Shown here in pieces: positions 14,366 through 19,966 of a stretch of DNA of 64,000 nt. Both the position numbers and the translations under genes were made by a program. This DNA comes from Candidatus Marinacidobacterales bacterium (GTDB taxonomy: Bacteria; Acidobacteriota; Vicinamibacteria; Marinacidobacterales; SMYC01), in assembly GCA_965237955.1 (NCBI GenBank), contig OZ250169.1, positions 1,280,001 to 1,344,000 on the forward strand, written 5' to 3'. The notes beneath the pieces are model-generated. The model did not search any database, was not told the DNA's origin, and was given only the letters and a program-made list of their open reading frames with translations. Positions within the stretch are counted from its first letter, which is position 1, and the number at the start of each line of letters is the position of its first letter.

Positions 14366-14496
14366 GGTGGTCCTCTCCTAATCGTTTTCGTTGGCGATAA
14401 GGGCGAGGCGAGTGGATCCTACGATTGCGCTCTTGTATTTAGTCTACCAGGAAACGTGCCATGGTGGAATCACGGCCCGGAAGCGTGGGTAGTGTC

Positions 14497-15312
14497 CTAA
14501 TTTGCCGCCGCGACGAGATCCCGTAGTTCCAGGGGCTCATTCGCGATCCCCGCTTCCATCGCTGGTGTGACGCGAAGGCTCTTGTGGATGCGGCAGAAAT
14601 TGTAGTGCGCGAAGTGAAGGCTCACCGCTGCCTTCAAGTTCTCGACCTTTTTGCTGAAGGCGTTCGTGAGCCGGGTGAAGCGCCTCATCGACATTCGCAT
14701 GGTTAGATTCTGCCTCTCGACGTGCGACGTACATATACCCTTCGGGTTACCGACGATTTGCTCTGTACTGATGCTGGCGACCTTTGGTGGACTGTACCTA
14801 CCGGGGCCGACAGGCGTCGCTTCGAAGTGCTTTACGATTCGACCGTAATCAACATCTGAGCCGAAGCCTTGTTCAACGGCATCCACGTAGGCTTCCATCG
14901 CATCTGTAGACAGTTGCACGCGGCCTGCCAAGCGCGAAGCCAGATCACCAACAAAGGCTCGGGTGTTTGCGCCGTCGCGTTTTCCCACTCGATACGAAGG
15001 GACAAGCTTGCTGTCGGTATCGAGTGCAACATAGGTCCAGAAGTCACCATTCTGAGCTGGATCATCGGTAGGTCTCATGTGGCGCTGCTTCTTTCCGACG
15101 TAGCACCAGATCTCGTCCATTTGGAGGTGACGGCATTCGAGCCCGCGCATCTCCGAGTCCATGAATAGCGCTGAGATATCGCCGACCCGGACCATGAGGC
15201 GCATGATCGTGTCGCGATGAATGCCGGTCATGCGCTCGACCGAGCGGATCGAGCATCCTTCGACGAGCGCGGAAATGGCCGCCGTTCGCTTGTCAAGACT
15301 GAGCTTATTCAT
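14497..15312 (-). CDS. IS1-family transposase
   Basis: N-terminal HTH (LVEGCSIRSVERMTG), DEIWCYVGKK, STD, TSHVERQNLTMR…RFTRLTNAFSKK; stop lies within the TIR. Confidence 0.92.
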   Translation of the reverse strand: MNKLSLDKRTAAISALVEGCSIRSVERMTGIHRDTIMRLMVRVGDISALFMDSEMRGLECRHLQMDEIWCYVGKKQRHMRPTDDPAQNGDFWTYVALDTDSKLVPSYRVGKRDGANTRAFVGDLASRLAGRVQLSTDAMEAYVDAVEQGFGSDVDYGRIVKHFEATPVGPGRYSPPKVASISTEQIVGNPKGICTSHVERQNLTMRMSMRRFTRLTNAFSKKVENLKAAVSLHFAHYNFCRIHKSLRVTPAMEAGIANEPLELRDLVAAAN

Positions 15313-15352
15313 TCGCTTTCCCTCTCACTTCTATGCTACGTTCCTCTTCAGT

Positions 15353-15426
15353 TGGTGGAGCTGCTGGGAATCGAACCCACGTGGGGCAGGCTGTAAATAC
15401 CGCCCTGGGCACCAGCCCACAGCCCC
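15353..15426 (-). ncRNA. tRNA-like RNA with Ala-type acceptor stem and encoded CCA
   Basis: GGGGCTG/CAGCTCC-ACCA acceptor (G3:U70, A73), T-loop TTCGATT, mini D-arm GGGC-TGGT-GCCC, 6-bp stem with 10-nt loop in the anticodon position. Confidence 0.8.
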
Positions 15427-15435
15427 GAATAGACG

Positions 15436-15471
15436 AAGCCCTCCGAGGGTGTTGCCTCGGAGGGCTTTTTT
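15436..15471 (+). terminator. Intrinsic terminator-like hairpin
   Basis: 13-bp stem AAGCCCTCCGAGG/CCTCGGAGGGCTT with T6 on the + strand. Confidence 0.7.
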
Positions 15472-15488
15472 GTCTCTCATTAAGTATT

Positions 15489-15516
15489 ATTATCTCCATC
15501 CTCAGCATTTTGTCAA
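15489..15516 (-). promoter_or_regulatory. sigma70-type promoter for the tRNA-like RNA/transposase
   Basis: TTGACA-16 nt-GATAAT on the minus strand. Confidence 0.6.
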
Positions 15517-15606
15517 GGTAAAATAGAGACAACAAATGATAATATCGAGTTGTTTTATCCGCCACAAAGTGTTATCTTGTCGGCACAGAAAGAAGGGACC
15601 TATATT

Positions 15607-16386
15607 ATGGCCAACGAGACCGGGAAGCCTATTAGAAAGCGGAGCCCGAACCATCCAGCAATCAATCTCAAGATCGCGACCGCCAAGATCGAGCAAATTT
15701 ATGAGAACGAGAAGGGCCAACACTTTGTCCCGTCCGAGACGATTTTCAGTCACTGGGGGTACAACGCGAAAAGTAGCGCGGGCAATACAACTCTTGGGGC
15801 ATTGAAGCAGTTCGGGCTATTGGACGCCGGGAGCAAGGAAGGCCGCCCAGGAGAGTCTAAGCTCAGTGACCTAGCAATGGAGATTCTGCTGGACAAAGAT
15901 GGCAGTCTCGGGCACAGAGACGAAGCACTCAAGAAGGCAGCGATGAAACCTCCCCTGTACGCCAAGATTTTGGGGGATTCGGGCGGTAGCCTGCCATCCG
16001 ATAAGACGTTGTGCTATCAGTTGATTAGAGACCATGGGTTTTCAGAGAGTCGAGCGACGGATTTCATTAAAGAATTCCAATCCACTTTAGCCTTTGCAGG
16101 AATTACAGAAGACGATACACTACGCAATGGGAGTGAGGATGGTGAGGCTGCTTCTAGCGGCCCGCAACGCTCGCTAGATGAGAAAAACGCCCTGCCAAAT
16201 ACTTCCAAAGCGAGGCCAGGAATGAATCAGGATACATTCACTCTCGACGAGGGGCAGGTTGTGTTGCAGTGGCCGGCAAGCTTCAGTCCGGAGAACTACG
16301 AAGATCTAAAGGATTGGTTGGAGCTCATGGCAAGAAGAATGAAACGGGCTGTGCGCGAAGCCAAAGAAGAGACTAAACAGGAGTGA
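15607..16386 (+). CDS. IS cargo protein 1, hypothetical (possibly winged-helix-like)
   Basis: 259-aa ORF after a purine-rich RBS; RSPNHPAINL…WGY…LGALKQFGLL; AT-richer than host genes. Confidence 0.8.
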   Translation: MANETGKPIRKRSPNHPAINLKIATAKIEQIYENEKGQHFVPSETIFSHWGYNAKSSAGNTTLGALKQFGLLDAGSKEGRPGESKLSDLAMEILLDKDGSLGHRDEALKKAAMKPPLYAKILGDSGGSLPSDKTLCYQLIRDHGFSESRATDFIKEFQSTLAFAGITEDDTLRNGSEDGEAASSGPQRSLDEKNALPNTSKARPGMNQDTFTLDEGQVVLQWPASFSPENYEDLKDWLELMARRMKRAVREAKEETKQE

Positions 16387-16667
16387 ATGAGTTACCAATC
16401 TCTGAGTTCGAAAAGGCCATCCGTGAAACTCACGGTGCCGTTGCACGCCTAGACGTCAGGACACTCGTTGAGGAAACATTCCAAGGGGAAACCGTTTGGA
16501 CGGGCGAGGTGCTCGCCTTTGAACTCCAAGACCACCCGACCGCAACCCAGTGCTACGCATGGTCCGTTGGCGGTCGCGTAACTGCCGTTCTTCACGAAGG
16601 CCCTATCGACTCGCCCGAAGCTGCCGTCCGAGCAGCTATCGCTGCTGAACACCGAACGAAATCCTGA
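16383..16667 (+). CDS. IS cargo protein 2, small hypothetical
   Basis: 94 aa, GTGA overlap with cargo 1; ETFQGETVWTGEV…HPTA..CYAWS…SPEAAVRAAI. Confidence 0.8.
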   Translation: MNELPISEFEKAIRETHGAVARLDVRTLVEETFQGETVWTGEVLAFELQDHPTATQCYAWSVGGRVTAVLHEGPIDSPEAAVRAAIAAEHRTKS

Positions 16668-16717
16668 AGCGCCTCCGGTCAAATTAGGACACTACCGAAG
16701 CGTGGCGCGAGCACTGG

Positions 16718-16731: not shown

Positions 16732-16947
16732 ACGGTACCGGATCCGGCAGGCGTTGATGCATGAATCAGTTCGGGACATGCACCACGGCGGCGGCCGTTC
16801 TTGGGCGGTGTCCAAGCTTCGCGCGCCTCCTCGGAAAACCGAACGGTGATGTCGCCACGGCTCCTGAGGCCACGCTCGCACTCCCGCCAGTTGGTCACGC
16901 GATACTTCGTCTTGTATTTGCGGTTCACTCGGCTGGACTTGCGCGCG

Positions 16948-18392
16948 GGAGGTGCCCCCACCATAGTTGAAGGTTCGAGGTGGTGGCGGCTCCTGACACA
17001 AGGTTTACCCGACTTTGGCGTGCTTGTCGAGCGCTTGATTCTCAGTGACCTCCGCTAACTTCGCTTCGAGGATCGGTAGCGATTGGTATCCAATGATACG
17101 ACGGAAATTTTTCTCCGTGGCGAGCAGAGCCGAAGCGGCCCATCTCAGAACCATCTTGCCATTGCGCCAGCGGGTGACGCGACGGGTACGACCTCGCGCA
17201 CCGCTGAAGCACGACTCGATGATGTTCGTCGATCCAAGGCAGCGTTTCAGAGATGCGGGGAGGTCGAGCTCGTCGATGGTGAACATCTCGTCGAGCCCCT
17301 CCCGGATGCTCTCCGCCGCCGAGGGGTAGTCGTCCTCGAGCCACTTCGCCTGTTGCTCCAACCGCGCTTTGCCCTTCTTTGCTGGGAGCTGCCAGGCCGA
17401 ACGCAGGCTCGCTTGCACTTGCGGCTTCAGCTCCTGCGGCAGATAACCGAGCACATTGCGCTCCTTGTGCTTCCTGCAACGCTGGACCTTGTTGTGGGTA
17501 CCGAACACAGCGTCGACGGCGACCCGTAGCGCCTTGGAGCCATCGATCACGAACAGCCGACACCGCTCTGGGCTCAGGCCTCGTTCGACCAGGTCCTCCA
17601 GCAGCGCCTTGCACACTATCTGGTTCTCCGATGCTCCATCCCGAAGCCCCAGAACATGCTTGTATCCCTCTGTATCTACGCCGATTGCCGCCAGCGCGTG
17701 GTGCTCGCCGAAGCGAATCCCGTCCAGGTACACGACCGCGATCTCCAGCTCGTCCAGCGGACGCTCCATCAGCCCCTGCAACTGCTCCGCGCTTGCTTCC
17801 ACGAACTCACGGCTCACCTCGCTCTTGCTAACCCCTACCGTCTCCGCCATCTCGGGAAGAACCGACGCGTACTTGCGCGTCGACACACCCAGCATCAGGA
17901 TTTCCCAGATGCGTTGGCTCAGCCGAGACGAGTTGTTCACCGCTTCGTAGGCAGGAATCGCAACCTCCCCTCCCTCTGCCTTTCCCTTACGCCGCAGACG
18001 TGGCCGGCTCACTCTCAACTTCCGCTCCGCAAGGCTTACTACGCCACCCTGCCGGCCGTGCCAGCGAACATCGCTACCCTTCTTCCCCGGGTGTTTCTCC
18101 CCAGCCACACTTTGGGCTGACAGATCCAAGACCGCTTCGATCGTCGCTCGGCCAGCAACGTCGATCACTTCGTCGATCGCTATCTCGGTTCGCTCAATCG
18201 CATCCAAGAACGGCAACAGAGCTTGCCCCTTCGAGCTCAGTATCTCTCGAAGCTTCTTCCTGTTCTTCGCATCGATGATTTGGTAATTTGACATCGTGGT
18301 GGCTCCTTTCTTTTTCCTTCACAGCCGGATTCTATCGAACCCGGCCTTAGGAGCCGCCACTCCTAACCTTCAACTATCTCAGGGGCATCTCC
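16948..18392 (-). mobile_element. IS256 family insertion sequence
   Basis: ~45-bp imperfect TIRs (GGAG.TGCCCC…ATAGTTGAAGGTT…GTGGCGGCTCCT); 8-bp TSD TGCGCGCG at 16940-16947 and 18393-18400. Confidence 0.95.
17005..18294 (-). CDS. IS256 (Mutator-type) transposase
   Basis: GVSTR, YLDG, VIDG, QRCRKH, STNIIES motifs. Confidence 0.93.
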   Translation of the reverse strand: MSNYQIIDAKNRKKLREILSSKGQALLPFLDAIERTEIAIDEVIDVAGRATIEAVLDLSAQSVAGEKHPGKKGSDVRWHGRQGGVVSLAERKLRVSRPRLRRKGKAEGGEVAIPAYEAVNNSSRLSQRIWEILMLGVSTRKYASVLPEMAETVGVSKSEVSREFVEASAEQLQGLMERPLDELEIAVVYLDGIRFGEHHALAAIGVDTEGYKHVLGLRDGASENQIVCKALLEDLVERGLSPERCRLFVIDGSKALRVAVDAVFGTHNKVQRCRKHKERNVLGYLPQELKPQVQASLRSAWQLPAKKGKARLEQQAKWLEDDYPSAAESIREGLDEMFTIDELDLPASLKRCLGSTNIIESCFSGARGRTRRVTRWRNGKMVLRWAASALLATEKNFRRIIGYQSLPILEAKLAEVTENQALDKHAKVG

Positions 18393-19880: not shown

Positions 19881-19966
19881 TGGTGCCGAAGGGGGGATTT
19901 GAACCCCCACTCCCCGAAGGAAACTGCGCCCTGAACGCAGCGCGTCTGCCGTTCCGCCACTTCGGC
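19881..19966 (-). tRNA. tRNA-Leu(CAG)
   Basis: GCCGAAG acceptor, anticodon stem CTGCG/CGCAG with loop TTCAGGG, long variable arm, GTTCAAATC, CCA. Confidence 0.97.

Follow-up and report, generated by a model that had tools for sequence, protein, structure and literature searches.

Why should the leader of a transposase gene contain a gene shaped like a transfer RNA (tRNA), and to which part of the surrounding element does such a gene belong? The question is raised by an IS1-family insertion sequence (IS) in a 64,000-nucleotide (nt) stretch of a Candidatus Marinacidobacterales genome (contig OZ250169.1, positions 1,280,001–1,344,000; this whole stretch is referred to as the window, and coordinates are counted from its first letter). 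The element spans 2,209 bp (14488–16696), is bounded by inverted ends and a target duplication and carries, 40 nt before the ATG of its transposase and on the same strand, a compact tRNA-like gene of 74 nt (15353–15426, minus strand). The initial annotation of this locus, made from the sequence of the window, had proposed an alanine-identity tRNA mimic that either controls the processing of the transposase messenger RNA (mRNA) or acts jointly with the two cargo proteins of the element. Comparison with related elements leads us to favour, with a probability of roughly 0.55, a module in which the conserved alanine-marked tRNA-like gene and the transposase would be transcribed together and the RNA excised by ribonuclease P (RNase P), releasing a mini-tRNA that is likely to be chargeable with alanine.

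The RNA encoded in the window has a 7-bp acceptor stem with a G3:U70 pair, A73 and an encoded CCA, a 4-bp D arm closed by a TGGT loop, an anticodon-like loop reading AUUUACA and a T loop reading UUCGAUU. ARAGORN names it 'tRNA-Cys (aca)', and the Rfam model of transfer-messenger RNA (tmRNA) matches its two ends only (41.1 bits against a gathering score of 47; E 2.7e-14), 35 nt of the gene replacing 326 positions of the model. Since a host tRNA-Ala scores 37.6 bits on the same model, this match reflects shared features of the acceptor and T arms only. Copies in other genomes were sought around transposase relatives of 46–71% identity, in 80 of about 2,100 genome stretches and 80 of about 6,400 metagenome stretches, by a motif scan followed by two covariance models. 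With covariance model R2 the window RNA scores 79.6 bits, compared with 39.6 bits for the highest-scoring host tRNA of its 8.1-Mb genome. The host tmRNA, encoded elsewhere in the genome (191 bits with the tmRNA model, tag ADNQLALAA), has the acceptor stem GGGGGCG. Judged by this other tmRNA acceptor stem and by the scores of the host tRNAs, the RNA is not host-derived.

Structure counts refer to alignment A6 of 22 distinct sequences, which was fitted to the model and hence leans towards it; the acceptor and T stems had first been found by a plain pairing script that used no model. Standard pairs occupy 92.5% of 481 cells, compared with 68.6 ± 1.4% in column shuffles (none of 500 shuffles reaching the observed value) and with 46–64% when pairing partners are slid. 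Compensatory changes on both sides are seen in 18 of the 23 pairs and in all four helices; the acceptor helix is 100% paired, with pairs 4–7 covarying, and the T helix 97.3%. The G3:U70 pair remains G:U in 21 of the 22 copies, a frequency shared by G2:C71 and by A73, and CCA is encoded in eight. Across copies the RNA is 67–75 nt long with a 7/5 acceptor/T geometry, a variable region of 3–5 nt, a D stem of 3–5 bp with a 4-nt NGGT loop in which GG is kept, and the usual GGTTCRAWT in the T loop. Features of a canonical elongator are thus present in part (cloverleaf, 7-bp acceptor stem, 5-bp T stem, T loop), while a D loop of 8–11 nt, a consistent U33 and a purine at position 37 are missing, and ARAGORN recognizes only two of the compact copies as tRNAs. 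Taken together, the alignment and the searches indicate that the RNA is a real, conserved family missed by Rfam and by tRNA finders. The alanine-identity mimic described from the window sequence is therefore borne out as a conserved entity with G3:U70, A73 and encoded CCA, and the check suggested at that time, a survey of relatives in which missing tRNA-like leaders or missing compensatory changes would have pointed to a decaying fragment, returned both the leaders and the changes. These alanine identity marks make charging by alanyl-tRNA synthetase (AlaRS) likely.

The 7-nt anticodon-like loop reads N-U-N-U-A-C-A across copies. Positions 34–36 are UUA in 11 of the 22 sequences, CUA in four and differ from each other in the remaining seven, so that in 15 copies the triplet is the complement of the stop codons UAA or UAG; the window copy, with UUA, shares this property of nonsense suppressors. 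U33 is present in 18 copies, C37 in 20 and A38 in 21. Among copies whose transposases are 89–99.6% identical the triplets are UUA, AUA and CUA, the wobble base alone varying. A possible pairing of the loop with the 5' untranslated region of the transposase, looked for by eye, fits two relatives only (L204 and L036) and was discarded.

The compact RNA was found in 13 of the 160 loci or, with the window included, as 16 copies in 14 of 161 sources (R2 score of at least 50 bits), whereas no ordinary tRNA of these loci or of the host genome exceeds 40 bits. All 16 copies lie upstream of the transposase and on its strand, and in the 15 copies of the main clade the distance from the RNA 3' end to the ATG is 27–43 nt. 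In a transposase tree of 149 rows, the query falls within a 48-row clade, where 11 of the 12 rows nearest to it have the RNA; in a mostly alphaproteobacterial subclade of 36 rows it is absent, and a divergent regulator-like gene is found instead. Within the second large clade, of 96 rows, the RNA is sporadic (L094, L106, L142). The inverted ends enclose the RNA in seven elements (the window, L060, L093, L094, L118, L119, L124). When the element is compared by blastn with related copies, homology runs from the left end to 15429 in L198 (94%) and to 15426 in L199 (89%), the latter being exactly the 5' end of the RNA, and cargo homology returns only near the right end. Because homology breaks exactly at the RNA 5' end, RNA and transposase form one module around which the cargo is exchanged. 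By these sequence comparisons the RNA is shown to travel with the transposase and to be linked to it and not to the cargo, and the placement of the mimic in the transposase leader made by the initial annotation is upheld by the fixed strand and spacing in relatives.

Tandem pairs of tRNA-like genes are seen in L094, L106, L120 and L140, and, among the more distant IS1 relatives, genes of canonical tRNA size occupy the same leader position in L093, L095, L156 and L164. ARAGORN assigns these and similar genes to Ile (tat, 88 nt; L164:2786–2873), Ala (tgc; L093:2863–2936), Gly (ccc, 87 nt; L095:2777–2863) and Leu (tag, 90 nt; L106:2697–2786), and reports a tRNA with a four-base anticodon at the same leader position in L094 (2846–2920). 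The twelfth near row, L122, is without the compact RNA and has a tRNA-like gene of about 95 nt (L122:1469–1563, minus strand) with a long extra arm, A3:U70 and the same CTTTACA loop.

When the RNA model only was used as the query, against 150 related genomes and then against another 150 drawn from across the phylum, nine matches were found in six of these 300 genomes. Seven fall in four of the related genomes, five of them 30–36 nt upstream of transposases that are 94–99.6% identical to that of the window; the other two, both in genome G060, have no adjoining transposase. Of the two matches across the phylum, one abuts an IS1595-family transposase and one lies behind a Bro-N protein. The compact RNA is thus mainly, but not exclusively, a companion of IS1-type transposases. 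One of the solo copies in G060 (C2:184718–184789, minus strand, within L203, G060:C2:183218–186289) has the loop CTTTAGA with the triplet UUA. The tRNA of 89 nt that comes directly after it is named 'tRNA-Pyl (cta)' by ARAGORN and reaches 58 bits with the Rfam tRNA model, so that two neighbouring tRNAs have stop-codon anticodons; no transposase is nearby. A crude list of open reading frames (ORFs) under code 11 around the G060 solo copies showed long open genes and nothing clear in the way of recoding. The copy next to the IS1595-family transposase (L221, G164:C17:77983–81052) has G3:U70, the loop CTCTAAA with a CUA triplet and a normal A37, and it ends 8 nt from the stop codon of that convergent gene (PF12762, 145 bits).

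Upstream of the tRNA-like gene, on the minus strand, lie a sigma-70-like promoter site, TTGACA-16-GATAAT (15516–15489), with 11 of 12 consensus matches (the promoter scan found three sites, compared with 0.9 expected from shuffles), and a GC-rich hairpin of 13–14 pairs (15435–15468) with perfect 13-bp arms (15436–15448 and 15455–15467). Downstream, a 40-nt spacer or 5' untranslated region (15313–15352) has GAGGG ahead of the start. The minus-strand order read earlier from the window (promoter, 13-bp hairpin, 74-nt RNA, 40 nt, transposase) is present in full. The hairpin recurs at the same place in most relatives. On the minus strand it stands within the leader, between the promoter and the tRNA-like gene; on the plus strand it is followed by TTTTTTG and resembles a terminator pointing away from the transposase. 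A T-run after the hairpin on the strand opposite the transposase, as judged by reading the sequences, is found in the window and in L060, L037, L116, L118, L139, L201 and L106, and in L116 and L118 a T-run follows the hairpin on the sense strand. Its likeness to a terminator is thus mainly on the opposite strand. The hairpin may insulate the cargo or end an antisense RNA. The base before G1 is U in 13 and C in three of 18 leaders, a pyrimidine in 16, and bacterial RNase P prefers U at position −1. Four relatives with near-identical transposases (L198, L199, L201, L204) share a longer conserved leader of about 140 nt upstream of the tRNA-like gene, with the motifs CCAGGCGGAGC and GGGGCGAAAACAAGAAG, a hairpin and then CCTGG, for which no Rfam match was found; in L198 an upstream ORF of 264 aa runs in the same direction and matches DUF5343 weakly.

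The leader has features that fit a tRNA-type processing unit: its strand and spacing are fixed, a promoter-like site lies upstream, a pyrimidine usually precedes G1, and there is a complete acceptor/T minihelix with A73 and, often, an encoded CCA. Transcription would start at TTGACA-16-GATAAT and run through the hairpin, the tRNA-like gene and the transposase; RNase P would cut at G1, the 3' end would be trimmed or its CCA repaired as in tRNAs, and a mini-tRNA, likely to be alanine-chargeable, would be released for charging by AlaRS, leaving a transposase mRNA with a short leader and possibly an altered level of transposase. The UUA and CUA triplets suggest a weak reading of UAA and UAG or a regulatory use of the ribosome. 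A bolder form of the proposal, in which an alanine-charged mini-tRNA cut from the transposase transcript reads UAA or UAG and thereby wires transposition to tRNA processing, charging and read-through, we consider rather unlikely; it would amount to a translational control device of a kind undescribed for any insertion sequence.

Several observations weigh against the proposed processing and release. RNase P requires neither G3:U70 nor an anticodon arm, so processing alone fails to explain these conserved features; from the invariant G3:U70 and the kept anticodon-like arm one would expect that AlaRS charges the RNA and that the loop is used in some way. The three matches of the RNA-only search that do not adjoin a transposase imply that the RNA can exist outside this cis arrangement, and the tRNA-like gene of L122 is inverted relative to the transposase and lies about 200 nt upstream of it. 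Between promoter and RNA stands a strong hairpin, with a T-run after it on the sense strand in L116 and L118, so that much transcription may stop before the RNA is reached. Parts of the element were found in 22 public runs, in all cases as contigs. Two RNA-library runs among these have contigs of relatives that cover parts of the transposase gene and of the second cargo gene, with no cover at 15376–15449, and the contigs end at 15330–15332. Neither observation is readable as expression or its absence, and an assembly break where related copies diverge accounts for the contig ends as well as an mRNA 5' end would.

How far other explanations account for the same features depends largely on the loop and on the fixed place of the gene. 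It is possible, if unlikely, that the selected function is decoding, with the RNA an alanine nonsense suppressor or missense tRNA carried as cargo by IS1 and IS1595 elements and prophages, and the site before the transposase supplying only a promoter. Free cargo of this sort would not hold a fixed strand and a spacing of 27–43 nt. Variable positions 34–36 between kept U33, C37 and A38 are what a tRNA family with changing anticodons would show, and the close relatives that differ in the wobble base only, the L221 copy with CUA and a normal A37 and the G060 copy directly followed by a tRNA with a CUA anticodon all agree with it. Positions 33 and 37 and the D loop matter for decoding, and C37 instead of a purine (20 of 22 copies), the 4-nt D loop and the loss of U33 in four of 22 make efficient decoding doubtful. 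Nor does the element appear to need read-through: the transposase and both cargo ORFs are open under code 11, and no such need is apparent in six bounded elements. Recoding within the element had been considered by reading TAA or TAG as sense in these six elements, and no conserved interrupted gene emerged. A link between the loop triplet and the transposase stop codon was also tried and is not convincing, the stop being TAA or TAG in 11 of the 12 nearest rows yet also in 24 of the 36 RNA-less sister elements and in 49 of 101 others. On the other side, irregular tRNAs with G3:U70 insert alanine at amber codons in Escherichia coli (PMC5389517).

The hairpin allows a further reading, in which the leader is an antisense or insulator device whose opposite-strand RNA ends at the hairpin and represses the transposase, the tRNA shape being secondary. 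The T-runs on the opposite strand in the window and several relatives agree with this, but we regard the device as improbable. A terminator there might just as well protect the cargo genes against transcription entering from outside, the scan at its threshold gave no plus-strand promoter-like site in 15200–15430, and the G:U pairs, among them the invariant G3:U70, form solely on the transposase strand. That the RNA works with the cargo proteins as a decoy, antitoxin or defence RNA, as the initial annotation had considered, is more improbable still. ORF1 homologues and a leader tRNA do occur together in the window and in L036, L037, L093, L118, L119, L140, L201 and L204, irregular tRNAs were found near toxin–antitoxin genes by Mukai 2017 (PMC5389517), and the weak fold matches of ORF2 include double-stranded-RNA-binding domains, with template-modelling (TM) scores of only 0.2–0.27. 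However, ORF2 is found in 23 of 80 related loci, most of them without the RNA, ORF1 is replaced by other cargo in the RNA-bearing L060, L124 and L198, homology between copies breaks between RNA and cargo, at the RNA 5' end, and neither protein matches PADLOC, PHROGs, Pfam or NCBIfam; the proposed partnership is not supported by these comparisons. We regard as least probable of all a decaying captured tRNA or tmRNA piece, or a feature whose action is confined to the DNA itself, for instance an internal promoter with a TTTACA −35 box or a recombination hot spot. The tmRNA match at the two ends, the TTTACA found 17 nt before the TCGATT of the T loop and the homology break at the RNA 5' end could be read in this way, but compensatory changes are seen in all four helices with the wobble pair G3:U70 kept, the host tmRNA has a different acceptor stem, and the covariation already disfavours this reading. 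The internal promoter was discarded as a candidate: its −10 box has no A at the key second position, its supposed −35 box takes its 'TTG part' from the variable loop (CATACA, CCTACA and GTTACA in other copies), and the scan lists no such site.

The assignment of the element to the IS1 family, already made by the initial annotation, agrees with its transposase and with its ends. The transposase (14497–15312, minus strand), a DDE enzyme encoded by a single ORF of 271 aa, matches PF03400 (IS1 transposase) with 32.3 bits against a cut-off of 24.1, and among the NCBIfam models the IS1 model fits it best, with 59.8 bits and thus under the cut-off of 100. Classical IS1 has insA and insB' joined by a programmed −1 frameshift. 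That layout is not seen here, and the single 271-aa ORF presumably places the element in the single-ORF subgroups of the family. Elements of the IS1 family typically end in inverted repeats and are flanked by a short duplication of 8–9 bp of the target. The left repeat, GGTAGTGTCCTAATTTG (14488–14504), contains the transposase stop codon TAG and is matched by a perfect 17-bp complement at the right end (16680–16696), and the target-site duplication, GAAGCGTG (14480–14487 and 16697–16704), is 8 bp long or possibly 9 bp, as the next base is G on both sides; the repeats and the duplication around a 2,209-bp unit were found as first described. The same inverted repeat also bounds related elements. 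In comparison by blastn with copies in other genomes homology begins at 14486–14488 and ends at 16696, where homology to L199 and L201 stops as well, so that both ends are independently confirmed by homology limits. The element is single-copy within its 8.13-Mb genome, the next best transposase paralogue being 49% identical, while transposase copies of 94–99.6% identity are present in four related genomes.

No empty site was found. The left flank is unique in the genome, pieces of other repeats make up the right flank, and an orthologous left flank was seen in genome G013 only, where it diverges after position 14479. On the right, 16783–16948 recurs about ten times in the genome at 86–94% identity and 16947–17004 about 29 times at 98%, the latter adjoining a transposase-like ORF of 429 aa (17005–18294, minus strand). 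With a right flank built of other repeats, the element is thus nested among fragments of mobile elements. Further along, 3 kb beyond its right end, there is an ordinary tRNA-Leu (CAG) gene (19881–19966, minus strand).

The cargo consists, as originally reported, of two coupled ORFs divergent from the transposase: ORF1 (15607–16386, plus strand; 259 aa) and ORF2 (16383–16667, plus strand; 94 aa), the GTG start of the latter overlapping the ORF1 stop as GTGA. ORF1 has 45 homologues, all unnamed; its model (predicted local distance difference test, pLDDT, 83.4) gives weak winged-helix matches only, and the N-terminal part is probably winged-helix-like. ORF2, modelled with a pLDDT of 89.5 as an α–β4–α fold, belongs to a very conserved family with 275 homologues that are up to 88% identical, compared with 71% for the best transposase in the collections. 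In most elements of the clade a homologue stands at the far end, and some homologues have an N-terminal zinc ribbon (PF13240). ORF2 thus has the look of a core accessory gene rather than of random cargo. A sequence profile search of both proteins against the PDB gave nothing under E 0.02, and Foldseek comparison of the two models with the PDB gave no match at E ≤ 0.001; the ESM Atlas places them in unnamed clusters only, one lead being DUF5343 (score 0.89). Elsewhere in the same genome, a 42-nt stretch (G000:C1:1028533–1028574) matches the end of ORF2 on its 3' side (element positions 2139–2180) with 95% identity and may be a relic of a related element.

IS1-family and IS1595-family elements with passenger genes are known (ISfinder classification), and Siguier, Gagnevin and Chandler reportedly worked on such elements in 2009. 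The present element resembles them in its IS1-type DDE transposase, in ends that start with GGTAGTG, in the 8-bp duplication and in having its passenger DNA between one end and the transposase, where many relatives hold 1.2–2.9 kb. It is unlike those described in having a conserved tRNA-like gene inside the transposase module, for which the literature searched offers no description. Structured RNAs encoded by insertion sequences have recently changed views of these elements, as with the guide RNAs of IS200/IS605 and the bridge RNAs of IS110. Here the case is different: in several phyla, an IS1-type DDE transposon keeps a probably alanine-accepting, tRNA-shaped RNA together with its transposase. 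Should this RNA be processed and charged, expression of the transposase would be linked to the tRNA machinery of the cell, and the RNA could serve as a natural compact alanine suppressor scaffold of about 70 nt.

Processing signals of tRNA shape are known from the mascRNA at the 3' end of MALAT1, from mitochondrial tRNA punctuation and from the tRNA–mRNA co-transcripts of the tufB operon, in which RNase P and a 3' nuclease excise a tRNA-shaped unit and so set the ends of the neighbouring RNA. We know of none from insertion sequences. The Rfam mascRNA model is weak on these RNAs (18.4 bits for the window and 27.6–29.2 bits for L200 and L201, with a gathering score of 42.5), and, unlike pure processing signals, the window RNA keeps alanine identity and an anticodon-like loop, which processing does not need. 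With the tRNA-like domain of tmRNA (RF00023), its best Rfam match, it shares G3:U70, the acceptor ends GGGG...CUCCACCA and the T arm; it differs in having neither a tag reading frame nor pseudoknots, in scoring below the gathering threshold and in possessing an anticodon-like arm, which tmRNA lacks.

A nearer parallel is offered by the irregular tRNAs (allo-tRNAs and 'polycistrons of irregular tRNAs'), non-canonical tRNA-shaped genes from soil and sediment bacteria, many with stop-codon or odd anticodons. Some of them have G3:U70 and, in E. coli, placed alanine at stop codons (Mukai 2017, PMC5389517; review PMC7609411). The 88-nt Ile (tat) tRNA at the same leader position in the distant relative L164 recalls this group, whose commonest members have the anticodon UAU (PMC5389517). 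Allo-tRNAs have an 8/4 or 9/3 acceptor/T geometry and a long variable arm, whereas the compact RNA is a 7/5 molecule of 67–75 nt without such an arm, its D loop having 4 nt and its position 37 being C. The window copy, and no other, can also be read as 8/4 with T8:G65, which would remove a G:G mismatch in the T stem. Full-text searches found no paper on a tRNA-like gene in an IS1 leader; they did not cover the supplementary neighbourhood figures of Mukai 2017, which may bear on priority. In the text of that paper that could be searched, the word stem 'transpos' appears twice and a fixed place before an IS1 transposase is not described (PMC5389517). The family reported here thus flags a gene class mostly overlooked by tRNA finders and suggests a genomic home for irregular tRNAs, which Mukai et al. 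tied only loosely to mobile elements. Irregular or allo-tRNAs (Mukai 2017) are the closest published kind, met here on mobile elements and, in the module that we favour, as an alanine-marked mini-tRNA that would be released from the leader of the transposase.

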